This document shows, piece by piece, positions 24,683 through 63,904 of a DNA stretch of 64,000 nt; position 1 is the stretch's first letter; each line of letters begins with the position of its first letter. Under the pieces are notes generated by a model, which searched no databases, was not told the DNA's origin, and saw only the letters and a program-made list of their open reading frames with translations. Source of the DNA: Bacilli bacterium (GTDB lineage Bacteria; Bacillota_I; Bacilli_A; RF39; UBA660). The DNA is taken from NCBI GenBank assembly GCA_035392025.1, contig DAOPMC010000001.1:68-64067 (forward strand), written 5' to 3'. A program made the translations under genes and the position numbers.

Positions 24683-25288
24683 TTAATGGTCCTGTGTCCC
24701 CGTTGCCTCTAACTTAGCACAATATACTTTACCAACATTATTCGTATAAACATCACTATTTATTGCAGTATCTGCTATCCAAATATATAGTTGATAGCTA
24801 TCAGTATCATTTAACCCACCATCTGCTGTTAATGTCTTATCAGATGCCAGCATATTAGCATTAGGATTAACGCTTATCGTATTAGTAGAATTATCAACAT
24901 CTACTAATTTATATCTTAATATGTCTGAACTTAGTGTATCGTCAGTACAAACTCCATCAACAAGCGCTGTGCAGCAGACAGAGGTCATTTTAAAGTTATA
25001 ATCTACTGCAATGCCAGATGTATTTTTTATAGTAAAAGAATAAGGTGTCCCAGATGATCCGTCGGTATCTGTCGTGGGTAGTGCACTTGTTAGAGATAAT
25101 ACATTACTTTCCCCAGAAAAAGTCAAAGTTAGTACACCTGATGTAACAGTATATGTCTTTGTTCCTGTAAAAGATCCTGCATAAAATGCATATGTAGTAT
25201 ATGATAATACCATTATAATTGCTACTATCCATAAGATAATACCTAATTTAGTAAACTTTAATTTACTTTCCTTTTTCTTTTTTACCAT
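24683..25288 (-). CDS. TasA/camelysin-like secreted protein, paralog P1 (SipW-cognate-type signal anchor)
   Basis: N-terminal Lys-rich segment plus TM, then YAFYAGSFTGT...VTSGVLTLTF...LTSALPTTD motif block shared with the other paralogs and resembling the TasA N-terminal domain; C-terminal Y.LYIWIAD motif shared with P4/P5. Confidence 0.55.
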   Translation of the reverse strand: MVKKKKESKLKFTKLGIILWIVAIIMVLSYTTYAFYAGSFTGTKTYTVTSGVLTLTFSGESNVLSLTSALPTTDTDGSSGTPYSFTIKNTSGIAVDYNFKMTSVCCTALVDGVCTDDTLSSDILRYKLVDVDNSTNTISVNPNANMLASDKTLTADGGLNDTDSYQLYIWIADTAINSDVYTNNVGKVYCAKLEATGTQDH

Positions 25289-25296
25289 ATTTCCTC

Positions 25297-25737
25297 CTAA
25301 TTATTTCCTTTAATTTGTCTTTTGATATCTATTTTTATATCTCGCTCTTTCATAGTTTCTCTCTTATCAAAATTCTTCTTGCCCTTACATAATCCTAATA
25401 ATATTTTAACCTTATTTTTGTTTAAATATACCTTAAGTGGTATTAGGGTATATCCTTCTAATTCCAGTTTAATATTTAATTTCTTTATTTCTTTTTTATG
25501 CATCAAGAGTTTTCTAGTTCTTGTTTCTATATGATTAAATGTTCCTGCTTCTTGATATTTTTTTATATACATATTAAGAATAAATAATTCATTATTTTTT
25601 ATAATTGCATAACTATCTTTAATATCACAAGATCCTTCTCTTACTGATTTAATCTCTGTTCCTTCAAGAACTATTCCACACTCATATTCTTCTTCTATGA
25701 AATAATTAAATTTAGCCTTTCTATTTAATATTTCCAT
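25297..25737 (-). CDS. smpB: SsrA-binding protein
   Basis: 146 aa; conserved SmpB core (GIVL.GTEIKS...) and basic C-terminal tail. Confidence 0.9.
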   Translation of the reverse strand: MEILNRKAKFNYFIEEEYECGIVLEGTEIKSVREGSCDIKDSYAIIKNNELFILNMYIKKYQEAGTFNHIETRTRKLLMHKKEIKKLNIKLELEGYTLIPLKVYLNKNKVKILLGLCKGKKNFDKRETMKERDIKIDIKRQIKGNN

Positions 25738-25738
25738 A

Positions 25739-27841
25739 TTAAACTACTCTCTTTCTTTCTAGTACCGGTTCAAAATCAATAAGCCTTTCTTCTTTATTAG
25801 CATTTACTAGTTTTACTTTTATATCATCACCTAAGTAATAAATTTTCTTATTATTTTTACCTTGAATTGTTTGATTTTCTTCATTTAATGTATAGAAGTC
25901 ATCCATCGTACTAAAATCCGCTCTACCTTCTATTGCATTATCTAAAGCTACAAACATTCCATTCTTAGTAAATCCTGAAATCATTCCTTCATACTCTTCG
26001 CCTATAAAGTTTTCCATATATTCTGCCATTTTCATTTTGTCAACTTCTCTTTCACAGTCAACTGCATCACGCTCTTTTAATGATGATTGAATAGCGATTA
26101 TTCTTAATTTTTGTAAATATTCTTTGCTAGTTACTTTAGCAATGTTGCCATCTAATATCTCATGGATTATTCTATGAAGTGATGTATCAGGATACCTTCT
26201 AATTGGAGATGTAAAATGAGAATAGCCTTCTTTTCGTTCAGCATTAACTGCAATACCATAGTGTCCATAATTGACAACATCATATTTAGCTTTTTTCATA
26301 CATCTCAAAAGATAACTTGATAGAATTGAAAACTTTTTAGAATCTTTCATCTTATTTAGTATACTTTGAATACATTTTGGCTTAACAGAAATATTTCCAT
26401 CTGGTGCAAACCCTTGGGCCCTCATAACGGTAATACCTTCGGTTAGTTTTTCTAAATCAGGTTCCTCATGTACACGATATATGTTGTGTGCTCCTAAATT
26501 AGTTACAAAGTTTGCGACTGCTTCATTAGCGGCAATCATAAAGTCTTCAATTAAGTTTTCTCCAGTTCCTTGAACTCTATTTTCAACGCCAAGAACTTTG
26601 CCATCTCTATCAACTAATATTTTAGGTTCATTTGTTTGAAACTCCAGCATGCCTCTTTTTCTTTTCATTTCTCTTAATATTATTGCAAGATCATTCATTT
26701 TCTTTAAGATATCTGCAAACTGTCCATAGCCTTCTGGAACTTCATTATTATCTAATATTTTATTAACATTTTTATATGTCATCTGCTTTTTAGAGTGAAT
26801 TACGCTTTTAAATACCTCTGTATTTATTGTTTTCCCATTTGGTGTTATTTCCATACGACAAGTAAGTGCCAATCTATCAGCTTCTGGATTAAGCGAACAT
26901 ATCCCATTTGATAGTTCTCTAGGATACATTGGCGATACTCTATCTGCTAGATAAACACTTGTTCCTCTTTCATATGCTTCTTTGTCTAAAGCAGAACCTT
27001 CTTTAACATAATGGGTAACATCTGCAATATGAACACTAAGAAGGAAATTACCATTATCAAGTTTTTTCATAGAAATAGCATCATCTATATCTTTAGTATC
27101 GTCTCCATCAATTGTAAATATTTCTTCGTTTCTTAAATCAACTCTACCCTTCATGTCAGATGCATCTACTGTTTGTTTTATATACTTTATTTCTTCTAGT
27201 ACTTCATCTGGAAATACATCATCGAAATTGTATTTATACATTACTTGTAGTATGTCATTACCTGGTTTTGTTTTATGTCCTAGGTCTTTCTCTATTTCTA
27301 AACTAAAACCATGTTTTTCTCTTCTAGTACCAAGTTTAACTAACAATAGTTCACCATCTACCATATTTAGCGGTGCATCACATTTTATCTTATTAAACTC
27401 ATCAAACTTAAAATATCTAATATTATTTTCCGTTATAATTTCTGCAATGTGATTAGATCTTTCAAGTACTTCCTTAATACCTGCCTCTGTTGGATTATTT
27501 CTATCTAGTTTGACAACAACACTATCTCCTAGAAGTGCCCCATTAATCTTAGTTGCAGGAATATATACATCTTCTTCACCCGGAATCCTTACAAAACCAA
27601 ATCCATTTTTAACAGAAATTAATTTGCCTTCTTTAAATGGACTAAGTTGAAAAGCTCCTGCCTTAGAGTTTGTGCAATAAATAACTTTATCATATAATAA
27701 CTCTCTTATTGCTTCCTCTACTTCTGCCTGCTTTTCAGGACTATTTTTAAATCCCATTTTCTTGACAATATCTATTACTCTAATAGAATTTGTACCAATT
27801 TTTTTAAATATTTCTAATATCTGTTCCTTCACAATTACCAC
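25739..27841 (-). CDS. rnr: Ribonuclease R
   Basis: 700 aa; RNB catalytic domain (DIDDAIS...) plus C-terminal S1 domain; secG-rnr-smpB synteny. Confidence 0.9.
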   Translation of the reverse strand: MVIVKEQILEIFKKIGTNSIRVIDIVKKMGFKNSPEKQAEVEEAIRELLYDKVIYCTNSKAGAFQLSPFKEGKLISVKNGFGFVRIPGEEDVYIPATKINGALLGDSVVVKLDRNNPTEAGIKEVLERSNHIAEIITENNIRYFKFDEFNKIKCDAPLNMVDGELLLVKLGTRREKHGFSLEIEKDLGHKTKPGNDILQVMYKYNFDDVFPDEVLEEIKYIKQTVDASDMKGRVDLRNEEIFTIDGDDTKDIDDAISMKKLDNGNFLLSVHIADVTHYVKEGSALDKEAYERGTSVYLADRVSPMYPRELSNGICSLNPEADRLALTCRMEITPNGKTINTEVFKSVIHSKKQMTYKNVNKILDNNEVPEGYGQFADILKKMNDLAIILREMKRKRGMLEFQTNEPKILVDRDGKVLGVENRVQGTGENLIEDFMIAANEAVANFVTNLGAHNIYRVHEEPDLEKLTEGITVMRAQGFAPDGNISVKPKCIQSILNKMKDSKKFSILSSYLLRCMKKAKYDVVNYGHYGIAVNAERKEGYSHFTSPIRRYPDTSLHRIIHEILDGNIAKVTSKEYLQKLRIIAIQSSLKERDAVDCEREVDKMKMAEYMENFIGEEYEGMISGFTKNGMFVALDNAIEGRADFSTMDDFYTLNEENQTIQGKNNKKIYYLGDDIKVKLVNANKEERLIDFEPVLERKRVV

Positions 27842-27885
27842 CTACAAAAATTATATCATAAAAAAAAGTTTCTTACGAAACTATT

Positions 27886-28101
27886 TTATAAAAATGACAT
27901 CACTACACAAATAATAAAGAAAGATAATCCTAAAACTAATGTTACTCTAGATATGAATAATTCACTACCTCTTTCTTTTCTATTACTAAACAAATCATCA
28001 TTGCCACCTGTAATTACTTTTGATGCTCCTTCTGCTTTACCACTTTGTAATAATACAATAGTGATTAATAAACATGATATAACTATTAATACTGTTTGCA
28101 T
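27886..28101 (-). CDS. secG: Preprotein translocase subunit SecG
   Basis: 71 aa, two TM segments; LLQSGK motif. Confidence 0.8.
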   Translation of the reverse strand: MQTVLIVISCLLITIVLLQSGKAEGASKVITGGNDDLFSNRKERGSELFISRVTLVLGLSFFIICVVMSFL

Positions 28102-28159
28102 AAAGTCCTCCTTGTTACTACATGTATTTTAATACATTTAAATAAAAATTGCAATATTA

Positions 28160-29104: not shown

Positions 29105-29140
29105 AGTATCACCTATCTAACTATATTCTTTCTAATTTTT

Positions 29141-30843: not shown

Positions 30844-30844
30844 A

Positions 30845-32182: not shown

Positions 32183-32286
32183 TATTTCACCTTCATATTT
32201 ATTATACTATGTTATTTTGATAATTTGAACTTTTTATTGATTTTTTGCTATATAAAAGTTATCATTATTATAGAGAGTTGATTAAG

Positions 32287-32628: not shown

Positions 32629-32638
32629 AGGTGAAACT

Positions 32639-40721: not shown

Positions 40722-43133
40722 TTAATAATTTAAGTATAAATTAGTGCTGCCATCAAAATAATCTAAATTTGCATCGCACCAAGTCTGTGTAGGCTCATTA
40801 CCAGCACCAAATGTTTTCGTTAAGTCTACTAGCAGAGCCCCATCGGCGTATGCTAGAAAACTTCCTTCCATCCCGTCGGACGCTGCCGATTGCCACCTGC
40901 CATGTGTCATTTCAAAATAAGTCATATCGCTATAATCATCAGTATCAACAACCACACTCTTTTTGACCCAACCACTACTTAATTCTGTTGATGTTAGCGA
41001 TGTAGGAAGATTCTGTGTGCTTGCCGTCCTTACTTTGAATTCCAGCGTATACGTGCCAGTTGTATTTGTAACTAATTTGTGATCTATTTTATAATAATAA
41101 ATATGCCCCGCCTCAAATGTATATGTTTGGTAGATATATGAAGAATATAAATTACTAGCCATATTCGTACAAATAGAATTACTTCCAAATCTTGAATATG
41201 AAGAAGACGTTGCTGTGTAACTTCCAACAATACTCCATCCTGTCGTACTGTCTTCAAAGCTACCATTTGTAACTATATTAGCAACCGTATATTGGATTCC
41301 ATCATCCCAGGCAGTCACTCTCTGCCCAAGAGATGTTTCGGGTCCCTCAGTGTGTATTACAGTTACATATGTACTTCCATTACTTGAAACACTTGTTACA
41401 TTATTATAATACGTTCTGCCATCTGCCCAATAATGCCATACCGCTATTTCATCTAAATTGTATGAAGATCCTAAATCGATAACTACACATTGATTACCCG
41501 TTGTGCCCTTTGCATAATTTGCACTTGTTATATCACCGTCTGTTATATTTGATATTGGATATGTTGCATCGTTTGTTATCCCTGTTGCTGTTAGTCCTTT
41601 TGCTATATTTTCTCCTTGATATATTGCCTGAAATTCTACCCACTGATTATATGTACTAGTGCTGTTACCGTTTATACAATTCTTAATATATCTAACATTA
41701 TTTAACCTTGTGTTTAATCTAGTTGGGGATGTTGTTCCTACATATGTGATTGTTGCTTTGCCATTACCAGTATTTGATTCTGAAACCATCTCAGTATCTA
41801 TAAAATATTTATTACTATAATGAATGATATCATCCGATGCCACAGTTGATGTTGAGGAAGTTATTGCATTTGCTCCTGCATATCCACTTATGAATGACGA
41901 TCCGCCAGCTGCTGAACCTACCACTGAACTTGATACATTTCCAGAAGCGCCTCCATAATATCCACCGCCTCCGCCAGCAATATACATCCATTCAGCTGTA
42001 AAGGTTGGATAATATCCACCTATTCCAAACGAACCATTATATCCAGTACCATCAGCGATAACACCTCCTAGAGTTTGAGTACCTCCGCCTGATGGCGTCA
42101 AGGTAGTTGAACCAAGTTGGGTAACGTTTCCAGAACCGCCGTAAAGGCCCCCAGCGATACCACCATTATTGAAATAAGTATTTCCATCGGATATATTGGC
42201 TCCTCCTCCTCCTCCAGCCACCATTATTCTTGAATTAAGCCCTAATTCTGAATTCCACGCTAATTGATCTGACGTTGGAGTAGTTACCCCAAAATATCTT
42301 ATATCTGTCGCTCCACCACCATTTGAATTAGTCGAAACAGTCGCTCCACTTCTAACTGCTAGTGTCCCTCTTCCGCCACCATTAAAACTTAGCGCATCTT
42401 TCGCACCAGTATAATTTTCGCCAATATATATGTATAATATTTCACCAGCATCTAGAAAAATTTTACCATTGGTATATCCACCCAGACCTCCAGTTTTTGT
42501 TAAATCACCATATGTGCTATTTCCACCTTGTGCTCCCCATGCTTCTATATTATAATATCCAGTTTTTGGCACTATAAATTGATTATAACTTCCAGTATAT
42601 GCATATTCTATATTTGAACTACTTGTTGATACGGCATAAGTATTAGCTCCTAGACTTGGAAATGAATAATCTGTTGGCAATGCTTCAACGCTAAATGTAA
42701 CCGTCGTTGATGAATCTCCCGTATTTTTTAATATTATTACTACTTGTTTTTCAGTTGTTGCCCCAATATTTCCTGATGCTATATCAAAATTAGTTAGATA
42801 TTTAGCTGTTACTGTGCCTGTTGTTGTATATATAGTCCTATATTTTAATTCCCATGGTGCATTGTTTTCAACATCTAGGCTTAAAACAATAGTTTCTCCT
42901 GCTGCAATCGTAAGACCGGTTGTTGCAGATGAAATATTTGATGTTAACGTTATTGGATTAGAAGAAATTAAGATTGCAACAGCAGCGTTTTTTTGTGTCT
43001 GCACCTCTAAAATAGCATAAGAAAAACTTGAAATTATTATTAATAATCCCAATATTATTGTCATATACATATATAAACTTTTAACTTCTTTGGTTAAAAA
43101 TTTGGCAATTTTTTTCTTCATATTTATAGCCAC
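40722..43133 (-). CDS. Large secreted/surface protein P2: TasA-like N-terminal module plus glycine-rich domain plus discoidin (F5/8 type C)-like plus CBM4/9-like domains
   Basis: N-terminal basic segment and TM (SipW-cognate-like); then a TasA-like block (ITLTSNISS...LTIAAGETIVLSLDVEN...); the 190-620 region is rich in GGGG/GGxGG runs; then a W..F.....QCVVIDLG..Y.LDEIAVWHYW segment (discoidin-like); then NGSFEDS..GW (CBM_4_9-like start). Confidence 0.55.
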   Translation of the reverse strand: MAINMKKKIAKFLTKEVKSLYMYMTIILGLLIIISSFSYAILEVQTQKNAAVAILISSNPITLTSNISSATTGLTIAAGETIVLSLDVENNAPWELKYRTIYTTTGTVTAKYLTNFDIASGNIGATTEKQVVIILKNTGDSSTTVTFSVEALPTDYSFPSLGANTYAVSTSSSNIEYAYTGSYNQFIVPKTGYYNIEAWGAQGGNSTYGDLTKTGGLGGYTNGKIFLDAGEILYIYIGENYTGAKDALSFNGGGRGTLAVRSGATVSTNSNGGGATDIRYFGVTTPTSDQLAWNSELGLNSRIMVAGGGGGANISDGNTYFNNGGIAGGLYGGSGNVTQLGSTTLTPSGGGTQTLGGVIADGTGYNGSFGIGGYYPTFTAEWMYIAGGGGGYYGGASGNVSSSVVGSAAGGSSFISGYAGANAITSSTSTVASDDIIHYSNKYFIDTEMVSESNTGNGKATITYVGTTSPTRLNTRLNNVRYIKNCINGNSTSTYNQWVEFQAIYQGENIAKGLTATGITNDATYPISNITDGDITSANYAKGTTGNQCVVIDLGSSYNLDEIAVWHYWADGRTYYNNVTSVSSNGSTYVTVIHTEGPETSLGQRVTAWDDGIQYTVANIVTNGSFEDSTTGWSIVGSYTATSSSYSRFGSNSICTNMASNLYSSYIYQTYTFEAGHIYYYKIDHKLVTNTTGTYTLEFKVRTASTQNLPTSLTSTELSSGWVKKSVVVDTDDYSDMTYFEMTHGRWQSAASDGMEGSFLAYADGALLVDLTKTFGAGNEPTQTWCDANLDYFDGSTNLYLNY

Positions 43134-45602: not shown

Positions 45603-46424
45603 TTATTTAAACCCTAGTTGAGTTCTATACTCGACTGGGGTTTTATAATTTAATGCAAAACTTGGGCGATAATTGTTATTATCCCAAACAATATTATCAA
45701 TAAATTCCTGAACTGTGTTATAATTATTCTTGTCAAAATCAATATGCATTTCTTTCTTCATCCAGCCATTTTTTGATTCGATGACTGGATTATCAGTAGG
45801 AGTTCCAGCTCGCGACATAGACCTGGTTATTTTATAAGAATTAAATATATTGTTGAATGACACTGAGGAATATACGGCTCCTTGATCTGTGTGGACAATA
45901 GTCTCAAGGTTTTCATATCCTCTTTTTATTTTACTATCTAGCATATTATTTAATGATTTCTTATGATTTAAAATGCCGTTTCCATGCATTGATTCTCTTA
46001 CGTCATAACCAACAATTTCATTATTAAAAACATCCAAATAAAAAGTCCAATCGTATGGTTTACCCTTAAAACCTATTGTTGTTGTATCAGATACAATTAT
46101 TTCGAATGGCCTTGACGTAGACCAATTACCTAAAATTATATTCTTAAATTTAATGGATTCATCTCCTGCAGGTTTATATTTATAATGTTTAGCTTTTGAT
46201 TTTATTTTTAATATTTTACATAATTTATGAACTAAATTGTTTGATACATACCATCCTGTTTCCCTTCTTATTATTGCATTAATTCTTTTATAACCATAAC
46301 TAGGTTTCCTCTTATGAATTTCTTTTATTAATTCTCCTAAATCTTTTCTGTTAATTTCATAATTGTTTAATATATCTTTATTCTTCATCCATTTATAATA
46401 TCCTGATCTTGAAACTTTTAACAT
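45603..46424 (-). CDS. IS3-family transposase OrfB (integrase catalytic core); the frame continues upstream to the frameshift site at about 46540
   Basis: rve-domain motifs (HTDQGAVYSS; D...E spacing). Upstream in the same frame reads ...EVTQIKYEIIELLSKEYNIKSLCIMLKVSRSGYYKWM, the typical OrfAB junction. Confidence 0.85.
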   Translation of the reverse strand: MLKVSRSGYYKWMKNKDILNNYEINRKDLGELIKEIHKRKPSYGYKRINAIIRRETGWYVSNNLVHKLCKILKIKSKAKHYKYKPAGDESIKFKNIILGNWSTSRPFEIIVSDTTTIGFKGKPYDWTFYLDVFNNEIVGYDVRESMHGNGILNHKKSLNNMLDSKIKRGYENLETIVHTDQGAVYSSVSFNNIFNSYKITRSMSRAGTPTDNPVIESKNGWMKKEMHIDFDKNNYNTVQEFIDNIVWDNNNYRPSFALNYKTPVEYRTQLGFK

Positions 46425-46489
46425 TATACATAAAGATTTAATATTATACTCTTTACTTAGTAATTCAATTATTTCATACTTTATCTGTG

Positions 46490-46837
46490 TTACTTCATGA
46501 ATTTTACAATTGAACCATCTCCTTTCGTTAGGTATCCTTTTTTTAATAATTCATTTTCGATTCTTAATTTCATATTTTCATATTCTAATTGTTCTTCCTT
46601 CGTTAACTCTTTTTTTCTAGAATATTTCATCAAAGGATTACCAGGCTTAGTTTTATTTTTTAAGCCTTCAATGCCAGATTCATTATACTTTTTTACCCAA
46701 TTGAAAATTAATCCAATATTAATGCCTGTTTCTCTAGAAACCTGTGATTGACTCTTTTCATTATTAATAATTGGTTTAATTATTTCATACTTTTCGTTTT
46801 CCGTTCTAATCATTTGTTTTTGACCTTTTTTAGCCAT
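46490..46837 (-). CDS. IS3-family transposase OrfA (HTH plus leucine zipper)
   Basis: 115 aa; N-terminal HTH (SQVSRETGIN), C-terminal heptad Leu repeats; ends just past the AAAAAAAG slippery site. Confidence 0.85.
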   Translation of the reverse strand: MAKKGQKQMIRTENEKYEIIKPIINNEKSQSQVSRETGINIGLIFNWVKKYNESGIEGLKNKTKPGNPLMKYSRKKELTKEEQLEYENMKLRIENELLKKGYLTKGDGSIVKFMK

Positions 46838-48539: not shown

Positions 48540-48567
48540 AAGAAAAAAAGATACAAAAAATGTATCT
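48540..48567 (-). terminator. Rho-independent terminator of lysS
   Basis: AGATACA-AAAAA-TGTATCT hairpin overlapping the lysS stop, followed on the minus strand by TTTTTTTCTTTTT. Confidence 0.5.
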
Positions 48568-50044
48568 ATTTTAGTTTCATTGTTGGAAATAAGATAACCT
48601 CTCTTATAGTTTCAGAACCAGTTAACATCATAACTAACCTATCAATTCCAATACCCATACCACCTGCTGGAGGCATGCCATACTCTAGTGCTTCTACATA
48701 ATCAAGATCCATCTCATTAGCTTCTTCATTGCCTAATTCTTTTTCTTTTATTTGAGATTCAAATCTTTCATATTGATCAATTGGATCATTTAATTCAGTA
48801 AATGCATTAGCATATTCTCCTCCAACAATAAACAACTCAAATCTTTGAGTAAATCTTTCATCTTTTGGATTTTTCTTAGCTAGTGGACTAATCTCAATTG
48901 GATAATCATATACAAATGTTGGCTCAATTAAAGTTTCCTCTACATATTTTTCAAAGAAAGCACTAATTATATGTCCCCATTCAAAGTGATCTTCTATTTC
49001 AACATTATGCTCTGCTGCTAATTTCTTGGCCTCTTCTGTATCTTTAACTTTTAGAAAATCAATGCCAGTTTGTTCTTTAATTGAATCTACCATTGAAATC
49101 CTTTTAAAACCTTTAGCAAGAGATATATTATGCCCTCTCCAAGATATTTCAGTTGTACCTAATAGTTCCATTGCTGTTGTTGAAAGAAGCCCTTCAGCAA
49201 CATCCATCATGCCCTCTAAATCACTATATGCTTTATATAACTCAATTGTAGTGAATTCTGGATTATGATTTTTATCCATTCCTTCATTTCTAAATAATCT
49301 TCCTATTTCGTAAACTGCATCCATTCCACCAACTAATAATCTTTTAAGTGGTAATTCTGTTGCAATTCTCAAATACATATCAATATCAAGTGTATTGTGA
49401 TGAGTAACAAATGGTCTAGCATTAGCCCCTCCTAGTATTGTACCAAGTACTGGAGTTTCTACTTCAACATATCCTAAGTCATCTAAATACTTTTGAATTA
49501 ATCTAATAATCTTTGGTCTCATAAAAGCGACTCTTCTGGCATCATCATTAACTATTAAATCAACATATCTTCTTCTAAATCTTTCTTCTGTATCAACTAA
49601 ACCATGATATTTTTCCGGAAGTGGTCTTAAAGCTTTAGATAGATGAGTATACTCTGTTGCTCTAATACTTAATTCTCCCATATGTGTTCTCATAACTGTT
49701 CCTTTGATACCTACTATATCACCAAGATCACCTTTATCAAACACTTCATATGCATCTTCACCAATATTGTCTATTTTCACATATATTTGAATTTGGCCAT
49801 ATTTGTCTTGAATATTAATAAATCCTGCTTTACCTTTACCTCTTTTAGTCATAATTCTTCCTGCGATAGAGACTTCGATACTTGCTTCATTTAATGCTTC
49901 TGCATCCATATCTTGATACTTTTCTTGTAGTTCTTTTGTTGTTACATCAACATTAAAACTATGACCAAATGGATCAACCCCTTTTTCTTTTAGAAAATCT
50001 AACTTTTCTCTTCTAATCAGTTCTTGTTCTGAAAAATTTCTCAT
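48566..50044 (-). CDS. lysS: Lysine--tRNA ligase (class II)
   Basis: Class II LysRS motifs ([15 protein letters not shown]). Start set at ATG 50044 (MRNFSEQE...) preceded by GAAGGAGG; the ORF-track extension MIEGGKI is a read-through of the RBS. Confidence 0.9.
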
Positions 50045-50045
50045 A

Positions 50046-50300
50046 ATTTTTCCTCCTTCTATCAATAAAAAAACAACTCTTCCAAAGGACGAATTGTTCG
50101 TGGTACCACCTTAATTATATATTTAAAAATATATATCTCATATCTTTAACGGAGACTCCCGAAATATCTTATATACAATATTTAGCTCCAAGTCTTTATT
50201 CAGATAATTATCACTGTTATTTTTCACCCACCAATAACTCTCTACTAGCTAAAACTATCTTACTTGTCTCTTCTTTGCTTTTGCATGTATAGATAATAGC
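50046..50300 (-). promoter_or_regulatory. T-box riboswitch leader (Lys specifier) controlling lysS, with a candidate promoter at its 5' end
   Basis: Minus strand carries the T-box sequence AATTAAGGTGGTACCACG (plus 50100-50117) followed by a T-run terminator before the RBS; upstream stem I has an AGAGAG K-turn motif and a loop ...GGTGGGTGAAAAATAAC exposing AAA-A (Lys codon plus purine). TTGCAA-17-TATTAT promoter at about 50284-50312. Confidence 0.6.
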
Positions 50301-55819: not shown

Positions 55820-56077
55820 TTACGTCAATTTTTTAGAAAATATATAACCAAGAAGAAAAAAAATTAAAAAATAAGTATGAATCATTCCACTATTAATAAA
55901 ATAGTTAACTATTAAAAAGAAAAATATAAAAAAGAAATAAAAAAGCAAATTATTTATTATTATGAATATTCTTTTTCCCAAAAATAATTTGTCTTTAAAT
56001 ATATTTTTAAATATTCTAAATAGCATCCCATAAAAAAAGCAAAAGAATATAGATAGTATTTGTTCTAATAAACTCAC
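55820..56077 (-). CDS. yabQ: Spore cortex biosynthesis protein YabQ-like (small polytopic membrane protein)
   Basis: 85-aa hydrophobic protein overlapping the yabP stop by 4 nt; assignment rests on synteny yabP-yabQ-divIC. Confidence 0.45.
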   Translation of the reverse strand: MSLLEQILSIFFCFFYGMLFRIFKNIFKDKLFLGKRIFIIINNLLFYFFFIFFFLIVNYFINSGMIHTYFLIFFLLGYIFSKKLT

Positions 56078-56385
56078 TTAAACATCTTAGAAAAAATGCT
56101 TCCTTCTTTAGCATTCTTTTTTATTTTATCTACATAACACATACTAATAATTAATCCTTTTAAACAGACTACCCCTTCTTTGGTATCAAGTTTCACTATT
56201 TCTAATCCTTCTCCTTTTACTACTAAATATCCCATAGTTGTTTCCATAAAAAATTCTTCATCATCAAAACTTTCTATTTTATTAACACCAGTAACATTAA
56301 GTGTTTTTCTCTCTAAAATAGATATTCCATGATTTATGTTATTAAGACTAATATTATCATTTTTTTCCATATTTCCTCCTAACAA
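56074..56385 (-). CDS. yabP: Sporulation protein YabP
   Basis: 103 aa with the YabP pattern ...LTGV..V.SFDDEE...ETT.G.L.V.GE.L.I..L... Confidence 0.6.
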   Translation of the reverse strand: MLGGNMEKNDNISLNNINHGISILERKTLNVTGVNKIESFDDEEFFMETTMGYLVVKGEGLEIVKLDTKEGVVCLKGLIISMCYVDKIKKNAKEGSIFSKMFK

Positions 56386-56420
56386 ACGATATGCTAGAAA
56401 GATTATATTTATACTAAAAA

Positions 56421-56446
56421 AATCCCTTAAGGGATTTCTTAAACTA
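56421..56446 (-). terminator. Rho-independent terminator of spoVG
   Basis: Perfect palindrome AAATCCCTTAAGGGATTT followed on the minus strand by TTTTTTT. Confidence 0.55.
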
Positions 56447-56448
56447 AA

Positions 56449-56706
56449 TTATTCAGCAGTCTTGTATGCTTCTAAGATAGCTTCTTCAAACATTGTACGT
56501 GTTTCTGGATTAATTGGATGTGCTATATCACGATATCCTCCAGTTGCTGTTTTTCTACTTGGCATTGCGATAAACAACCCATTGTCTCCTTCAATAATTC
56601 TAATGTCATGAACTGCAAAGCAATCATCAATAAGTACTGATGCAATTCCTTTCATACGAGAAGATTCTTTTTCAATCTTACGTACATTAACTGATGTTAT
56701 TTTCAT
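56449..56706 (-). CDS. spoVG: Septation protein SpoVG
   Basis: 85 aa; strong identity to the SpoVG consensus (...[46 protein letters not shown]...). Confidence 0.9.
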
Positions 56707-56788
56707 CTTATGTCCTCCTTTAAAGCAAACCGCTTCTACTTAAATAATATACCAATAATTAACAAAAATCAATTGTTTTTATATATAT

Positions 56789-58366
56789 TTACATCTCAGT
56801 TACAACATATGGATCAGCACTAGTTCCAGTACCTGTCACTTTAACTGTTGGTGCTAAATTTATTACAGGATATACATCCATAGAAGTGCTAGTAGATGTG
56901 CTGATAACTTCACCAATACTATTTGTCGATAACATATATGAAACACTGTTACTATATCCATAGGCAGACATGGTAAAATATGATGAAGTTTGTCTTAATA
57001 TATTAAATTTATTGATAACTCCAAGTTTTAATCCTGCGTATATTAGTTCATCACTTGATAACAATCCTATTTTTACATCATATAGATATGAATTAGAACA
57101 GGCATATGATGGAGAACCACTATTTGCCCTAGTATATGCTGAAGATGTATCATTACAGAAACTAGCTGATGATACAAATTTATCATAGTTTGATAAAGTA
57201 GAATCATACCATGATTCTAAACTCGTTTTAATCGCTGAATCCTCTGTTCCACTTCCACCATCATAAGTATACCCCAAATACGTAGATGCATTTGATAGAG
57301 CGTTATATGTACTTGCAGTTCCTGTTGCTGTTGTTTTAACTAATCTTATAGTATCATCTTCATTAACCCTAACAATTCGCCAATTTGAACCTGCAAATAA
57401 AACATAATTATTTATAATGTTTCCTCGATAAAAATATGTATCCTTACTATCTTGCCCAGTTACTTTATATACCCCGTTTTCCACAGTATATAATGATTGT
57501 GCACCATTATTATTATAATAACTCGTACATGTCGTTAAATTATAGTTTGCATTGTTTGAATCACAATATTGGCAATAATCACTGACATAATAATTACCCA
57601 TTGTGTCACACACTTTAGTTTGATAGTCTGAAACTGATGTTGGGGCATTATCATAATATGTTGAACTTGCAGCAGCTTTGGTAGTTGTAATTGCAGTTGT
57701 AATAACATTTTCTTCATCTTCTCCAATTATCAAATCTTTTAATAATAATGGTGTCTCCTGAGAAGAAGATACTATTAACTTTTTATGAAAATGTCTTCCT
57801 ACTATGCTACTTGGTGCATCTGATTTTATCCAAGTATTTAGTGAATATGTAACAGATGCTCCTACATTTAATGATACTCTTAATATTTGTCCTCCTGTAG
57901 TTAGTTCCATAGGTTCATAAGTAATTGAGTTTGTCTCATCTATTAACTGATATCTAACATTATTATTATCAAGCAGATTAGAATTACATCCACAAGTCGT
58001 AATTGCATCCGTATCGTTTTCTAAAGTTAAAGTTACGATTGCTTTTACATTGCCACTATTTGTTACTCTAAATTTATATGGTGTTTGTAATATTCCTTCC
58101 GCATCACTTTTAGGAAGTGCATTGGTAAGTGATATTGTGCCGCCTAGACCAGTTGCTGTATCATCAAAAGTAACACTAAGAGAACCAACAGTTACCGTAT
58201 TATGCCCAGTTCCTTCATCTAAATCAGTAAATATGGCAAAACTAGAACCCGCAATTAAAAATACTAACACAAAAATTGATATGAAACTTATAATTGCTTC
58301 CTTACCATATTTTTGTATTAATCTTTCTTTTTTTAATTTTAAGTATCCTAGTCTTTCTTTTTCCAT
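56789..58366 (-). CDS. TasA/camelysin-like secreted protein, paralog P3 (525 aa, extended C-terminal region)
   Basis: Basic N-terminus plus TM, then AGSSFAIFTDLDEGTGHNTVTVGSLSVTF...ISLTNALPKSD...YKFRVTNSGNVKAIVTL, which aligns with the SipW-cognate signal region and N-terminal domain of B. subtilis TasA (AFND...TFASGTLDL...NLSNLKPGD...FQFENNGSLAIK). Confidence 0.65.
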   Translation of the reverse strand: MEKERLGYLKLKKERLIQKYGKEAIISFISIFVLVFLIAGSSFAIFTDLDEGTGHNTVTVGSLSVTFDDTATGLGGTISLTNALPKSDAEGILQTPYKFRVTNSGNVKAIVTLTLENDTDAITTCGCNSNLLDNNNVRYQLIDETNSITYEPMELTTGGQILRVSLNVGASVTYSLNTWIKSDAPSSIVGRHFHKKLIVSSSQETPLLLKDLIIGEDEENVITTAITTTKAAASSTYYDNAPTSVSDYQTKVCDTMGNYYVSDYCQYCDSNNANYNLTTCTSYYNNNGAQSLYTVENGVYKVTGQDSKDTYFYRGNIINNYVLFAGSNWRIVRVNEDDTIRLVKTTATGTASTYNALSNASTYLGYTYDGGSGTEDSAIKTSLESWYDSTLSNYDKFVSSASFCNDTSSAYTRANSGSPSYACSNSYLYDVKIGLLSSDELIYAGLKLGVINKFNILRQTSSYFTMSAYGYSNSVSYMLSTNSIGEVISTSTSTSMDVYPVINLAPTVKVTGTGTSADPYVVTEM

Positions 58367-58419
58367 GATACACCTACTATATATTATACCATTTTTATTA
58401 TAACATATTTTTTATAGAT

Positions 58420-58638
58420 TTAAACCCCTTTTATAACCAAATTTTTGATTAGAACATCGTTATAAGAAAAAGATTTAATTGATCTTGTATTTATTTCTTT
58501 AACCAAAAAAACTCTATTGTAAGTCTCTACTATAACCCCTTCAAACTCTTCTATTTGATTTCTGCTACCATTTATCCTAAAAGATAGACTTTTCCCAACA
58601 TTAGATTTTATATATTCTTTTATATGTTCTAAACTCAT
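58420..58638 (-). CDS. veg: Veg family protein (DUF1021, biofilm-stimulating)
   Basis: 72 aa; matches Veg (...IK..L..NLGK.L.....GGR......G.L.ETY.SVF...). Confidence 0.7.
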   Translation of the reverse strand: MSLEHIKEYIKSNVGKSLSFRINGSRNQIEEFEGVIVETYNRVFLVKEINTRSIKSFSYNDVLIKNLVIKGV

Positions 58639-59420
58639 CTAGGATACCCCGTATACATCATTCCCTCTGTTATTATTCCACCCATGCCATTTGCACCATA
58701 CTTAGTTTTATTTAATATTTTTAATAATTCTATATCTCTTCCTTTTTGAGATAAACTTACACTCGATGCAATTATCGCTGGATCTAAGGCGTGAATATTT
58801 ATTCTTTTAGGACTAGATGCAAAATTTGATCCTGACTTTATTAATTCTTCATAATTTGATTGACATGCACCTGCTATAATAACTAACTTTTCGTGAGACT
58901 TTTCATATTTCCTAGCTTCTCTTACTGCCTTTATAAAATTATCGCTATTTTTATAATTGGTAGAATCATTTATATCATCTTGTCTTTTATAATAGGCATC
59001 ATGTCCTGTTATTACAACAATATCTGGATTTATATCTTCTAATTGTTTTCTTATATTTAGATGAACTACATTTTCTTTTAGTAATATCCCATATGCTAAA
59101 ATATCCATCTTTTTATAAAAATCCATACATCTTTTTAAATAGTCTTCGTCAGCATCAATATGAAGAATCTTCCCGGGTAAATAAAAATATTCACTACGAT
59201 CTAATTCATCGCTTTTGATTCTATCATACGCTTCTTCATCATCTAAGATATCATCATAGCAATTATCGCACTTTTTTAAATCATCGATCTTACTATCTGC
59301 AACAAGTCTGACATTAACACCCTTTAATATGACCATCTCATCTTTTAAATCAATAATTTTAAATACAATATCATTATTATAAGAATTTCTAGTAACCAAA
59401 TCCCCTATATTAAAAAGCAT
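58635..59420 (-). CDS. yabG: Sporulation-specific protease YabG (peptidase U57)
   Basis: Collinear with B. subtilis YabG: MLFNIGD.V.R.SY..D..F.II..., VITGHDAY, AGACQS..E.L...G.NFASSP.R.NIHALDP. Confidence 0.8.
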   Translation of the reverse strand: MLFNIGDLVTRNSYNNDIVFKIIDLKDEMVILKGVNVRLVADSKIDDLKKCDNCYDDILDDEEAYDRIKSDELDRSEYFYLPGKILHIDADEDYLKRCMDFYKKMDILAYGILLKENVVHLNIRKQLEDINPDIVVITGHDAYYKRQDDINDSTNYKNSDNFIKAVREARKYEKSHEKLVIIAGACQSNYEELIKSGSNFASSPKRINIHALDPAIIASSVSLSQKGRDIELLKILNKTKYGANGMGGIITEGMMYTGYPR

Positions 59421-59593
59421 ATAATCATCTCCAAATAATTATATGCTCTATTCTAATAAAATATTATTTATTTAAATATATCCATGAATACATTTAAACC
59501 AATCATATATATCAATAATTTCAAATAGTCAAGTTTTGAAAATATTTTTTCAAAACTTTGCTCTTTGTCTACTTTAGGAAAAATATTTCCAAA

Positions 59594-60394
59594 TTAAGAC
59601 AATTTATTTGCAATATCACAAAATATATTGACACTTAATACTTCACTTCTAGTATTTAAATCATATCCATGTTCTTTTAATACTTCTTCAATTCTATTTA
59701 AATCATACTCTTTTAAATTATTTCTAATAGTTTTTCTTTTATATCTAAAGCTATCTCTAACTAATTTAAAAAACAAGTCTTCATTCTTAACAAATATTCT
59801 ATCCTTGCTCTCTAATTTGATGATTACACTGTCAACATTAGGCTTAGGTATAAAACACGTTCTATTTACAACAAATAGCTTCTTAATGTCATAAAAATAA
59901 TTTAAAAATACTGTAATAGATCCATAATCTTTAGTACTTGGTTTAGCACAGAATCTATCTCCTACTTCTTTTTGAACCATTAAGACAACGCTTGTAGTAT
60001 TAATACCGCTGTTTATAATATGTTCTATTATTGGGGTTGTTATGTAATAAGGAACATTGGCAATTACATAAATATTTTTATAATTATACTTATCAACATC
60101 CCTGTTAATATCTCTTTTTAGAAAATCATCATAGATTATTTCATAATTAGCATAGGATTTTAAATTTTTGTTTATGTGTTTTTCTAGAAATTTATCTATC
60201 TCATATCCAATAACAAAAGATGAACTTTTACATAAATATTTAGTTAAATTAGCAGAACCCACTCCTATTTCAATAACTAACGACTCATCCATAATATTAC
60301 TTTCTCTAACTATTTTTTCTATTACATTATTATCTACTAAAAAGTTTTGACCAAATTTCTTTTTAAATTTAAAATCCATATTATCACCACTCAT
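59594..60394 (-). CDS. rsmA: 16S rRNA (adenine1518/1519-N6) dimethyltransferase
   Basis: KsgA motifs (FGQNFL.D, EIG.G.G.LT, NLPY); ksgA-yabG-veg order as in Bacillus. Confidence 0.9.
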   Translation of the reverse strand: MSGDNMDFKFKKKFGQNFLVDNNVIEKIVRESNIMDESLVIEIGVGSANLTKYLCKSSSFVIGYEIDKFLEKHINKNLKSYANYEIIYDDFLKRDINRDVDKYNYKNIYVIANVPYYITTPIIEHIINSGINTTSVVLMVQKEVGDRFCAKPSTKDYGSITVFLNYFYDIKKLFVVNRTCFIPKPNVDSVIIKLESKDRIFVKNEDLFFKLVRDSFRYKRKTIRNNLKEYDLNRIEEVLKEHGYDLNTRSEVLSVNIFCDIANKLS

Positions 60395-60415
60395 ATAATA
60401 TCATAAAAAAAACTG

Positions 60416-60940
60416 TTATGCATTAACAGTTTCTTCAGTTTCTATCTTTTCTACAACTTCTTCTTTAGGCAATTCTTCAACTACTTCTATAACTTTCTCT
60501 TTTACTACTTTTTTTTCTCTAAAGATTCTATAATTTATTACAAGCACAAGATCTGATATAAACAATAAATAAATAAGTAATTTAATAGTACCTAAGTTAT
60601 CAGATAAATAAGATGGACTATAATTAATACCATACTTGTAATATAGCATCATATTAGTATCAAATTTAGCACGATAACCAATATATACTATTGCACCAAG
60701 TACAATTACTGCTGTTATGTTATAGAAGAAATTACGATTAATTATTTTTTGGCGTCCCATAAGATTAATAATATACATAATTAGTAAAAGTACAAATGGT
60801 AACATAATAGGGATTGAATCTGTTACTGATTTATCAAGTCTTGTATAAGTCAGCAGTAATCCATAAAATATTAAACCCATAGCTACAAGTAATAAAAGTA
60901 TTCTTAAAACTACAAATAAGCCATTTATTAACTGCTTCAT
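60416..60940 (-). CDS. Hypothetical polytopic membrane protein (last gene of the SipW locus)
   Basis: 174 aa, about 4 TM segments, acidic/Lys-rich C-terminal tail; 4-nt overlap with the upstream gene. Confidence 0.4.
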   Translation of the reverse strand: MKQLINGLFVVLRILLLLVAMGLIFYGLLLTYTRLDKSVTDSIPIMLPFVLLLIMYIINLMGRQKIINRNFFYNITAVIVLGAIVYIGYRAKFDTNMMLYYKYGINYSPSYLSDNLGTIKLLIYLLFISDLVLVINYRIFREKKVVKEKVIEVVEELPKEEVVEKIETEETVNA

Positions 60941-61668
60941 TGTGTCACCTCCCCAGTTGTTGCTGTTGCTCTTACTTCTTCTAAATAATCAACAATTTCA
61001 TCAAGTATATTTGCTGATTGTTCATAATTATCTAAAAGTCTTTCATAAATAACTTTTGTTGGATTATATATGGTATTTCTAGTATCAACTGTAGTATAGC
61101 TGTAGGAACTATTTCCCATTAGCCAATTTTCTAACACTGTATTACTAGCTGTTATTTGATAAATAACCGGTTGATGCATTGCTAGCGTGCTAACCATTTT
61201 TTCATCTTCATATAAGTCAGATGATGCCGTTGTTCTTATTACTCCCATTTGATAAGCTAAACATTCTCCTCTAAATGAATTGAAATCTTTATAATAAGTG
61301 TAATTAGTAAAAGCATCTGCTGTTTCGATAGGTGTCTTGTAAAGTTCCATTTTTTTAAATTCATCAGTACATATTTTTAGTCCTAATCTAATTTTTTCAT
61401 AATATATAGCTTTATTATTAACACCAAATACAGTAAAACTAATTGTTGAAAGTCTATTATCAGCATCATCTATTTTTTTTACAATGTTTTCTCTTTTTGT
61501 TTTTCCTTCGTCATTAATATAATAATCATATTGCAGTTCTTGTGCATGATAGACATTAGCAAATATTAAATACCCTGCCATAAGCAAAGAGATAATTAAA
61601 ATTGCACCAACTAATAAATTAATTAATTCCCCAAAAGTCTTCTTCAGCATCTTCTTCCCTCTTTTCAA
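60937..61668 (-). CDS. Hypothetical membrane-anchored protein with a large extracytoplasmic domain (SipW-locus associated)
   Basis: 243 aa; basic N-terminus and a single TM, then a Tyr/Thr/Asn-rich domain; the start overlaps the sipW 3' end, so the true start may be an internal Met. Confidence 0.4.
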   Translation of the reverse strand: MKRGKKMLKKTFGELINLLVGAILIISLLMAGYLIFANVYHAQELQYDYYINDEGKTKRENIVKKIDDADNRLSTISFTVFGVNNKAIYYEKIRLGLKICTDEFKKMELYKTPIETADAFTNYTYYKDFNSFRGECLAYQMGVIRTTASSDLYEDEKMVSTLAMHQPVIYQITASNTVLENWLMGNSSYSYTTVDTRNTIYNPTKVIYERLLDNYEQSANILDEIVDYLEEVRATATTGEVTQ

Positions 61669-62341
61669 TTCTTTTTTCTTCTATTATAACTTTTTTCTCA
61701 GGTTCTTTATGTTCTACTTCTACAGGAGTGGTAATTGTTTTAACATTATCTATATTAGTAGTTTCTTGTAGATTTCTTTTTCTTTCTAGTAATTTCTTTC
61801 TCCTGGTAAATATTTTTACGAAGTCAAATATAATTATACCCATACACGGAACTACTATCGCAACTAGCCAACCAAATTTGGTCGCTAAGAATTGTTGAAT
61901 ATATCCTATCTTTGGTATTTTTAAAATAACTTTACCCATTATATTTTTAGTAAGTACTGCTGGAGAATCTTCGGTATTATTAGCATCACCTTTTGTAACA
62001 TAAGCTGTCTCTCCATCACGAAGTGTTATTTTGACAATTCTGTGAGTAACAGTAATACCTTGTGTATATGTTCCATCCGATATATATGTTACAACATCAC
62101 CTATTGCATATACATCATCTTTCGTTTTAAAAGTTATTATCATATCCCCAGCTTTAATCTTAGGGGACATGCTTTGGGTTAGGATAACATACATATTAAA
62201 AGGAACTTTATCTAATTTATCTTGTTTTTGCATTACTTTGATATATACTACATACGCTGCAAGAAGTACTATTAAGATAAGCAAAAGCGTAAGAATAGTT
62301 TTAGATATTATTCTTAAAATTAATGCTATTTTTTTCTTCAT
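61619..62341 (-). CDS. sipW: Signal peptidase I, SipW / Sec11-type (Ser-His, S26B)
   Basis: N-terminal TM, ER/archaeal-type SPase boxes: TQSMSP (catalytic Ser), GDVVTY, THRIV (catalytic His), KGDANNTEDS; C-terminal TM plus charged tail. Confidence 0.7.
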   Translation of the reverse strand: MKKKIALILRIISKTILTLLLILIVLLAAYVVYIKVMQKQDKLDKVPFNMYVILTQSMSPKIKAGDMIITFKTKDDVYAIGDVVTYISDGTYTQGITVTHRIVKITLRDGETAYVTKGDANNTEDSPAVLTKNIMGKVILKIPKIGYIQQFLATKFGWLVAIVVPCMGIIIFDFVKIFTRRKKLLERKRNLQETTNIDNVKTITTPVEVEHKEPEKKVIIEEKRIEKREEDAEEDFWGIN

Positions 62342-62353
62342 AATTTCACCCTT

Positions 62354-63127
62354 TTATTCTACATATCCTATAACATTTACAATACATTTAAAAGTTCTAG
62401 TTGTATTATCTAATTCATAATTATTGGCAACCCAAAGTCTAAGACGATATGAATTTGTTTGAGTTGTGGTAAGTTCTTTTGTATATAATTTTTTAGCATT
62501 TGAGGCATGAGTGCTATTATCTAAATTTGTATATGTTGGAATTACTCCCGTAAAACCAGATGCTGCTGCTCCATTTTCCTCTAAATAAACTTTAATATAT
62601 GCTGGATCTAATTTTAAACCACTTATTAATGCTTCTGTAAGATATATTTCATATGTTACTTTTTTAACTTTAGGATTATTATTTAAGTTAAAAGTAATTT
62701 GAAAATCAAAGTATTCGTTTGTCCCAGATAACGCTTTACCAAGTTCATCAGTCATAGGATAAGCATTTACTATATCAATAGCTGAATCAGCTTCGCTATA
62801 AGAAAATAGTACCATTCCAACATCAATATTGTTAGAGCCTCCCGTTGAACCACCATTATTAACATAATCTGTTATAGAAAAGGTGATAAATGATGCTCCT
62901 GCAATTAATGCTACTAACATAACAATTAGTAACCAAATGGGTACTATTCCTCTATTTGGTTTTATATATAACTGTTGTCCTACTACTATATTAGTATCTT
63001 CAAGTTCATTAATTTTTATGATAGACTTTTCAGTTACATCATATTTATCTGCAATAGATGCTAAAGTATCATTTTCTTTTACTATATATATAATATATCT
63101 TAAATTGTCATTCTTATCTTTTACCAT
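62354..63127 (-). CDS. LysM-domain pro-region plus TasA/camelysin-like secreted protein, paralog P4
   Basis: Residues about 12-56 form a LysM motif (DTLASIADKY.V....I...N.L....I..GQ.L.IP). A TM follows with ALIAGASFITFSITD, nearly identical to the P3 cleavage region LIAGSSFAIFTDLDE. C-terminal SYRLRLWVANNYELD motif shared with P5 and P1. Confidence 0.6.
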   Translation of the reverse strand: MVKDKNDNLRYIIYIVKENDTLASIADKYDVTEKSIIKINELEDTNIVVGQQLYIKPNRGIVPIWLLIVMLVALIAGASFITFSITDYVNNGGSTGGSNNIDVGMVLFSYSEADSAIDIVNAYPMTDELGKALSGTNEYFDFQITFNLNNNPKVKKVTYEIYLTEALISGLKLDPAYIKVYLEENGAAASGFTGVIPTYTNLDNSTHASNAKKLYTKELTTTQTNSYRLRLWVANNYELDNTTRTFKCIVNVIGYVE

Positions 63128-63194
63128 AAAATACTAGCATCCTCTCTTACACTATCTCTATTATTGATAATAACATAAATTTTAATAAAAATAA

Positions 63195-63223
63195 ATAAAA
63201 AAGACTTATTTTTCATAAGTCTA
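63195..63223 (-). terminator. Rho-independent terminator between P5 and P4
   Basis: AGACTTAT-TTTTCA-ATAAGTCT hairpin followed on the minus strand by a T-run. Confidence 0.5.
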
Positions 63224-63238
63224 ATCATATTAAATAAA

Positions 63239-63904
63239 TTATGCTGTTGCTTGAACATTTACTTTGAATGTATATGTTGCTGCTGTTGTTGTATTTGAAA
63301 TTGTATCATTTGATGTAGTATTATCATTTGTTGTTAAATCATATTCATCATCTACCCAAAATTGAATACGGAATGTTTCATTTGCTGCTGTTGTAATTTG
63401 CCTTGAAGCAAAATAGTTAGTTGCTGACATATAACTACCAAGTACTTTTGGTGCTAATGTCCATGTTCCTGATGCAGCAAGGCACGCTGCCTCTGTGTCT
63501 CCGGTTCCTGAGCAACTTCCATATCCTTCAACTGCTTTACCATTAGCATCTACTTCAACAAAGTTAATTTTAGTTTCATCTAAATCACCTGTTTGAGATA
63601 CTTCAGTAAAGTATAGTACATATGTAAAAGTAACTCCAGATGCAAGTGTTGGTACTACAGTAAATGTATAATAATTAGTGTTAGTACTGTGGCCTTTATC
63701 ATATGTCATTGGATATTGATTTGTTAAAGTTGCTACAGTTTCATCACTAAATGCTATAGATAACTGTGAAGTAGAGATAGATGATGTTCTTGTACCAGTA
63801 GCACTAAAGCTATACATTGCATAAGATACTCCAACTACTGCAATAACTAGTACTAAAACAGCTACAATAGAAAGTATTATTTGCTTTGAATTATTTTTTT
63901 CCAT
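63239..63904 (-). CDS. TasA/camelysin-like secreted protein, paralog P5 (221 aa, TasA-sized)
   Basis: Basic N-terminus, TM, YAMYSFSATGTRTSSISTSQLSIAF... block; C-terminal FRIQFWVDDEYDL motif. Size and position (first gene, own terminator) resemble a major fibre subunit like tasA. Confidence 0.6.
   Translation of the reverse strand: MEKNNSKQIILSIVAVLVLVIAVVGVSYAMYSFSATGTRTSSISTSQLSIAFSDETVATLTNQYPMTYDKGHSTNTNYYTFTVVPTLASGVTFTYVLYFTEVSQTGDLDETKINFVEVDANGKAVEGYGSCSGTGDTEAACLAASGTWTLAPKVLGSYMSATNYFASRQITTAANETFRIQFWVDDEYDLTTNDNTTSNDTISNTTTAATYTFKVNVQATA

Follow-up and report, generated by a model that had tools for sequence, protein, structure and literature searches.

The stretch of DNA considered here, 64,000 nucleotides (nt) of contig DAOPMC010000001.1 in the GenBank assembly GCA_035392025.1 of a Bacilli bacterium (hereafter the window), contains five members of a dispersed protein family, four of them complete and one cut off by the end of the window. 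Three of the five stand in tandem next to the gene for a SipW-type signal peptidase, in an operon that recurs in related genomes. The proteins share a signal segment with a SipW-cognate-like cleavage motif and a domain modelled as a beta-sandwich, and they represent a very large unannotated branch that appears to function in the manner of the SipW-dependent superfamily of TasA from Bacillus subtilis and may share a remote ancestry with it. The interpretation to which we incline, if only slightly, is that these exported beta-sandwich proteins are processed by SipW to become subunits of fibres assembled by donor strands, with dispersed paralogs that bear cargo domains.

An original prediction made from the letters of the window had named five paralogous TasA-like genes (P1 to P5, numbered along the window; Table 1) and suspected a sixth, partial one at its edge. 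All five open reading frames (ORFs) are present where it had placed them and lie on the minus strand. In an all-against-all BLASTP comparison P1 and P3 match with 61 bits, P1 and P5 with 39, P4 and P5 with 38 and P3 and P4 with 30. A stricter test of membership used a profile hidden Markov model (HMM) built from database homologs alone, without any sequence of the window. Run against the 160 ORFs of the window, this model recovered P5 (157 bits), P4 (132), P3 (73) and P1 (63), and the best of the other 156 ORFs reached 5 bits. The suspected partial ORF is a genuine member as well: another copy of the contig (L042), longer by 450 nt, yields a C-terminal fragment of 133 amino acids (aa) which matches the family HMM with E=4e-10, and an A-type paralog, as this gene is called below, occupies the corresponding position in nearly all related loci. 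The dispersed paralogous family is thereby supported, with four of the five named ORFs as members and P2 as the exception.

The motifs on which the prediction had relied recur throughout the family, namely G-x-S-[FY]-A followed by [YF]-[ST]-[FY], then T-G-x-[VIL]-x-[VL]-x-[YF] and L-T-N-x-Y-P-x-x-D, and the shared C-terminal motif takes the form Y-x-L-x-x-W. That such motifs might reflect chance similarity among unrelated, low-complexity secreted proteins rich in Thr and Ser is scarcely conceivable for the family as a whole, since four of the ORFs stand far above the rest of the window with a model that had seen none of them, homologs number in the thousands and their synteny is conserved. This explanation is refuted for all named ORFs except P2, to which it does apply, as a hydrophobic segment of 16 residues is the sole match there.

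P2 was rejected as a paralog on three counts: a profile built from the four other proteins gives it -17.8 bits, it gives no match at E<=10 in the family HMM search, and hhalign aligns 16 columns only, in the hydrophobic and cleavage segment, with a probability of 0.7%. Its similarity to the family lies in the sequence S-F-S-Y-A-I-L that follows the hydrophobic stretch, a type of signal pattern found elsewhere in the window only in P3, P4, P5 and one antisense ORF. The protein, which is on record with 799 aa from a start ATG at 43121, bears a glycine-rich ALK/LTK-type domain (Pfam PF12810, 7.5e-36) and may be a SipW substrate in its own right that carries a cargo-type domain by chance.

The conservation of the operon provides the second line of evidence. 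Scanning one genome per species with a nine-sequence alignment yielded 39 related loci, 33 of which show the core order A-B-C-sipW-(X)-D-E-ksgA-yabG, where X is a fourth, weakly matching paralog often found after SipW; the operon of the window is identical but for the absence of X. Nearly all of the 39 loci are labelled as uncultured 'Bacilli', 'Tenericutes', 'Mycoplasma sp. CAG:611' and similar, and the deviating labels of four (Bacteroidaceae, Lachnospiraceae, Muribaculaceae) are probably binning errors. Two to five tandem paralogs are present per locus, with sizes of ~200 aa for A, ~225 aa for the P5-like B and ~230-280 aa for the P4-like C. SipW is encoded in 33 of the 39 loci and lies at most 200 nt from the last paralog in 29. 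Among the six loci without it, three end at a contig edge and the other three are extra paralog pairs from one metagenome-assembled genome (MAG). D and E occur in 30 of the 39 loci, ksgA and yabG in 29.

The prediction that two members sit beside sipW is borne out by two complete genes, to which the cut-off member adds a third. The peptidase itself reaches 96.3 bits with the archaeal/ER-type model TIGR02228 (cutoff 51.85), and its 98 bits against the Bacillus SipW equivalog model fall under that model's cutoff of 190. Its last hydrophobic segment is followed by a charged C-terminal tail of ~60 residues. For SipW of B. subtilis, Terra et al. (2012), as cited in PMC9674648, reported two functions. 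Pfam and NCBIfam scans returned nothing for the accessory proteins D and E, which are candidate assembly or anchoring factors; the idea that they are hidden members of the family was rejected by hhalign.

A third line of evidence comes from the signal segment and the residues around its end. Across 73 sequences the site consists of G (71/73), [VI], S/T (72/73), F/Y (72/73) and A (66/73), followed after one variable position by Y/F at +2 (68/73), and the small residues at -3 and -1 make it fit cleavage by a signal peptidase. In P5 the cut is predicted after Ala29 (VSYA↓MYSF). The proposed SipW-cognate-like motif is supported in so far as G-x-S-[FY]-A↓x-[YF] obeys the -3/-1 rule and aligns with G-T-W-A↓A-F of TasA; comparison of B. 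subtilis TasA with PDB entry 8aur places the start of the mature chain at Ala28, directly after G-T-W-A. Nowhere in the protein is conservation higher than in the stretch right after the predicted site, which continues from the Y/F at +2 as [ST], [FY], [ST], x, T, G (67 of the 73 sequences), x3, N (67), x, I (59), x, T (63), G (68). Three polar residues stand out as well: the Asn at position +12 after the site (67/73), the Asp of L-T-N-x-Y-P-x-x-D (65/73) and a Lys (56/73). Of the six sequences that have no Asn at this position, five have no Lys either (Fisher p=0.002, not corrected for phylogeny). Within the window the full N-D-K trio is found in P4 only, P1, P3 and P5 being without it.

Other types of surface signal find little room in these proteins. 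No C-terminal LPXTG sorting signal, as in the sortase-dependent pilins of Gram-positive bacteria, is visible in the five translations, and the NCBIfam model LPXTG_anchor gives only a non-significant match (E=8.6), on a hydrophobic N-terminal segment. A class III signal, which in type IV pilins and pseudopilins has a short basic leader and G↓F-x-x-x-E before the hydrophobic helix, does not suit the arrangement either, as the conserved motif follows the hydrophobic segment rather than preceding it; in Pfam and NCBIfam scans no pilin family was matched. The predicted start with a basic segment and then a hydrophobic anchor holds except in P4, which opens with a LysM domain (residues 14-56, Pfam 7.7e-14). 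This domain precedes the hydrophobic segment and would be cytoplasmic if the segment is a normal N-in signal, and the same LysM-first layout is kept in several homologs (P0002, P0004, P0005, P0048 and P0049).

How close the family stands to TasA was assessed by profile comparison and by structural modelling. The TasA profile was made from a 36-sequence alignment of TasA homologs; every homolog retrieved for this purpose carries PF12389. With hhalign, a family profile of 67 sequences matched it with a probability of 21% (P=0.0011) and one of 218 sequences with 69% (P=4.5e-5) over 66 columns; reversed controls gave P=0.08-0.15 and the signal peptides alone P=0.003. The match is collinear from the signal peptide over the cleavage site and the first strands to L-x-N-x-x-P. 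The resemblance to the TasA N-terminus in the original prediction therefore stands as a collinear block, but it is borderline and covers the first ~66 columns only, so that the sequence evidence for TasA, drawn from the N-terminus, is suggestive. AlphaFold2 models computed with family alignments show a long N-terminal helix followed by a beta-sandwich, both for P5 (predicted local distance difference test, pLDDT, 86; predicted template modelling score, pTM, 0.72) and for P1 (pLDDT 84); the 10-20 residues that follow the predicted cut are precisely those of low confidence. Judged from these models, the TasA fibre appears to be the best structural match in the PDB, by a modest margin.

A number of results weigh against a relationship to TasA and against the fibre model that draws on it. 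Most of the hhalign signal originates in the signal peptide; restricted to the mature parts, the comparison yields P=0.022 for the broad profile and P=0.13 for the narrow profile. Pfam Peptidase_M73 (PF12389) was not matched in an hmmscan of the five proteins at E<=1. In Pfam and NCBIfam scans neither the complete proteins nor their N-termini taken separately matched TasA, camelysin or the SipW-cognate signal, and for the separate N-termini the NCBIfam model of that signal (TIGR04088-type) stayed unmatched even at E<=10, and a HMMER search of PDB sequences with the family profile returned noise only and left the TasA sequences unmatched. Foldseek found nothing in the PDB at E<0.001, with TasA in 11th place at E=0.2, and the repeated top match of P5 and P1 is not fully independent evidence, as the two proteins are homologous. 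Finally, the cytoplasmic-side LysM of P4 is left unexplained by a model of extracellular fibres.

TasA is processed by SipW and polymerises as its freed N-terminal strand completes the sandwich of the next subunit (PMC9674648). Since the operon fits the template of the TasA superfamily, we infer for the family export by Sec, cleavage by SipW and fibre formation by donor-strand exchange. The precursors would be exported by Sec through their N-terminal signal segment, and SipW would cut them after the almost invariant G-x-S-[FY]-A. The freed N-terminus ([YF]-[ST]-[FY]-...T-G-x3-N-x-I-x-T-G) would then act as the donor strand that completes the sandwich of the next subunit, as in TasA and its superfamily at large, and a surface fibre or matrix would result. 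A, B and C would be its major and minor subunits, and the dispersed paralogs and long members, such as P3 and proteins with BspA-type leucine-rich repeats (LRR) elsewhere, would be cargo or adhesin subunits built on the same N-terminal module. The strong conservation just after the predicted site, together with the low pLDDT that the models show there, are indirect signs of such a donor strand.

The same observations have to be set against a doubtful but serious alternative, according to which the proteins do not polymerise at all and are surface proteins with a generic immunoglobulin-like sandwich as stalk, held by an uncleaved anchor or released by SipW, with variable adhesin- or enzyme-like domains at the C-terminus; their likeness to TasA would then be due to convergence. 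The modest structural margin permits this reading, and the weak similarity of the mature-domain profile to TasA speaks for it, as do the large, adhesin-typical C-terminal domains of many members and the position of the cleavage motif, which AlphaFold2 places within the N-terminal helix. Near-invariant small residues at -3 and -1 argue for cleavage, however, and a peak of conservation right after the predicted site suits a donor strand better than a passive linker. A stalk protein also fits poorly with the presence of three short, cargo-free tandem paralogs beside a dedicated peptidase in 33 of the 39 loci, as this cargo-free set matches the filament subunit sets of the TasA superfamily (bioRxiv 10.64898/2026.01.04.697558; PMC11580942).

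The surroundings of the operon bring up a different setting, in which the proteins would be components of the spore surface (coat, crust or appendage) that SipW processes during sporulation, rather than of a vegetative matrix or pilus. The operon adjoins yabG, which encodes a sporulation coat protease (Peptidase_U57, 7e-90), in 29 of the 39 loci, and spo0A-like, yabP, yabQ and spoVG genes are also present in the window. The LysM domain of P4 has its best NCBIfam match in that of SpoVID (1.4e-9), and a LysM that faces the cytoplasm is reminiscent of SafA and SpoVID, coat proteins of the mother cell; it was also on spores that TasA was first discovered. Yet the remaining paralogs adjoin unrelated housekeeping genes, and the order ksgA-yabG-veg is ancestral in Bacillota, as is yabG-veg...spoVG (both are found on the map of B. 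subtilis), so that the adjacency to yabG may carry no meaning. On these grounds we consider a role confined to the spore surface improbable. A promoter and terminator scan of 56300-64000 returned sigma-70 consensus sequences at background level and was not used as evidence.

The ancestral gene order bears likewise on the position of P3, which the original prediction had connected with the stimulation of the tasA operon by Veg in B. subtilis. P3 does directly follow veg, but a functional link has no support beyond position. A family gene occupies the spot between veg and spoVG only in the window and in its closest relative (L027, GCA_964575655.1), and the other loci whose sequence extends far enough past yabG showed no family member at this place. 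The link was set aside because the arrangement is limited to these two, and the adjacency, although real, is probably incidental.

Under the fibre model the members outside the operon would be cargo- or adhesin-bearing subunits, and the family is modular in its architecture. The positions given in the original prediction for P1, P2 and P3 among their neighbours are all correct. P1 starts 8 nt after the stop of smpB and is probably co-transcribed with rnr-smpB. The transfer-messenger RNA (tmRNA) gene just downstream of it encodes the tag peptide GNRNLAFA and reaches 170 bits with Rfam. In P3 the family domain takes up about residues 1-205 and is followed by an unannotated C-terminal domain of ~320 aa that has no match in Pfam or the PDB; P3 and similar proteins look like cargo-bearing subunits. 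The C-terminal domain (56789-57750) is rich in Cys and in Ser, Thr and Asn, and its motifs W-R-I-V-R-V..., L-L-S-x-D-E and V-Y-P-V-I-N-L loosely recall DUF6273-type domains, to which there is a weak match (E=0.037) in another long member (P0165).

The closest relative of the window shows how such cargo may vary. A homolog of P1 with 53% identity stands directly after smpB there, as in the window, and a gene after yabG (13328-14977 of that locus) joins a P3-like N-terminal domain (40% identity) to a glycine-rich ALK/LTK-type domain like that of P2 (40%). At the position between veg and spoVG the two genomes thus have the same N-terminal domain with different cargo, and the fusion of a P3-like domain to a P2-like one shows that cargo domains have been shuffled between these genes. 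The window is not alone in having paralogs away from the core operon, as the MAG Lapin-032 bin35 (loci L017, L018 and L035) contains several extra A-B pairs with no SipW within 4-8 kb.

The family is large and has so far gone without a name. A profile of the four domains found 78 clusters in a word-indexed protein database, all unnamed, in which Pfam recognises only LysM, in clusters of the P4 type, and DUF1310, in a single entry. When 1.84 billion cluster representatives were scanned in full with HMMER, 7,279 clusters (defined at 50% identity) were returned at E<=1e-3, of which 4,471 remain at E<=1e-10. Exact look-up of cluster members gave proteins from metagenomes and MAGs that are unnamed or called 'hypothetical protein', and neither Pfam nor NCBIfam holds a model for the family. 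Many members are 400-1,150 aa long with the family domain at the N-terminus, and some of them carry BspA-type LRR_5 repeats.

The features of the window that concern the family are collected in Table 1. The window is essentially one metagenome contig of ~64.5 kb, also found in JGI sample 3300010349 and ENA ERZ27257452. It has a guanine-cytosine (GC) content of ~29% and carries nearly all of its genes on the minus strand, in a housekeeping order typical of Bacillota. Its gene set includes spo0A-like, tuf/fusA, uvrA, smpB, rnr, eno, murD, whiA, cysS, clpC, lysS, ftsH, tilS, spoVG, veg, yabG and ksgA as well as yabP and yabQ. Upstream of lysS (48566-50065) there is a T-box leader (50082-50284), which scores 121 bits with Rfam. 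Between clpC and a membrane-protein gene, two adjoining minus-strand ORFs of 273 and 115 aa (45603-46837) look like a two-ORF transposase of the IS3 type, to judge from their translations.

Table 1. Family members, operon genes and flanking genes in the window
Feature	Description	Position	Strand	Basis
Paralog A	First gene of the core operon, last 15 codons and stop, cut by the window end	63952..64000	-	
Paralog B (P5)	221 aa, signal peptide and beta-sandwich domain	63239..63904	-	
Paralog C (P4)	257 aa, LysM, hydrophobic segment, family domain	62354..63127	-	Pfam, family HMM
SipW-type peptidase	Archaeal/ER-type signal peptidase I with charged C-terminal tail	61619..62341	-	TIGR02228
D	Accessory protein, 243 aa, single-pass membrane protein	60937..61668	-	Homologs at the same operon position
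E	Accessory protein, 174 aa, polytopic membrane protein	60416..60940	-	Homologs directly after D
P3	Dispersed paralog, 525 aa, between veg and spoVG	56789..58366	-	Family HMM, 73 bits
P1	Dispersed paralog, 201 aa, between smpB and the tmRNA gene	24683..25288	-	
P2	Non-member, 803 aa, between clpC and cysS	40722..43133	-	Pfam PF12810
smpB	Flanks P1	25297-25737		
tmRNA gene	Flanks P1	24299-24642		
veg	Flanks P3	58420-58638		NCBIfam Veg 2e-11; Pfam VEG in public gene calls
spoVG	Flanks P3	56449-56706		

Bacillus, Clostridium and archaea have already provided examples of operons that combine a SipW-type peptidase with multiple TasA-like paralogs, and it is against these that the family has to be placed. 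With TasA and CalY (PF12389) and the tapA-sipW-tasA operon of B. subtilis it has in common exported proteins of ~200-260 aa encoded beside a SipW-type peptidase, a signal peptide that ends in G-x-[ST]-aromatic-A with an aromatic residue at +2, and the same order of an N-terminal strand, a G-T/S-L/V strand and L-x-N-x-x-P. It differs in that no TapA homolog was detected for the family, that its operon contains three tandem paralogs and the membrane proteins D and E, that many members carry large C-terminal cargo domains and that its hosts are uncultured gut Bacillota rather than Bacillus.

The matrix operon sipW-bsaA-bsaB-bsaC of C. perfringens (PMC11580942) likewise unites SipW with a set of remote TasA-like paralogs. 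It is common for an operon to hold several BsaA/TasA paralogs, and heteropolymers have been suggested for them (PMC11580942). The conserved Asn in the N-terminal strand, together with the Lys and the acidic residue conserved in most members of the family, recalls the N-K-E isopeptide lock of BsaA; the trio is, however, N-D-K here, and three of the four complete paralogs in the window lack the full set. The gene order differs as well, and the operon of the family is without the von Willebrand A protein.

The widest frame is offered by a superfamily in which TasA stands together with AbpA, AbpX, Tafi, threads and cannulae of archaea and whose loci typically comprise a TIGR02228 peptidase, minor subunits, tip proteins that vary in their domains, and accessory or anchor proteins of the membrane (bioRxiv 10.64898/2026.01.04.697558). 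The loci described here follow the same logic as those of the AbpA bundling pili, AbpX, Tafi, the 0406 threads and the cannulae CanA/CanX (PMC9245690): they contain a peptidase of the TIGR02228 type, several paralogous subunits and membrane accessory proteins, and the family includes long, cargo-bearing variants that share the N-terminal module. A comparison of the family profile with PDB sequences showed no sequence-level link to these families, and D and E, being without a Pfam match, do not match DUF5305, the signal-peptidase accessory protein of those loci.

In a more specific form, which we put forward tentatively as one possibility, the family would be a very large, unrecognised branch of the TasA superfamily confined to uncultured low-GC gut Bacillota, where A, B and C build heteropolymeric donor-strand pili with the help of D and E, interchangeable cargo-bearing paralogs dispersed in the genome act as tips or decorations, and the N-D-K trio forms an intermolecular isopeptide lock in the many members that have it. 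If the fibre model is true, more than 7,000 unmodelled clusters would make up a surface-fibre or adhesin system of poorly known uncultured gut bacteria, named 'Tenericutes' or 'Mycoplasma sp. CAG' in older records, and the LRR-bearing members would be candidate adhesins for attachment to host or particles. These genes would gain an annotation, and the TasA superfamily, beyond the systems of Bacillus, Clostridium and archaea, would extend to a new bacterial branch with accessory proteins of its own.

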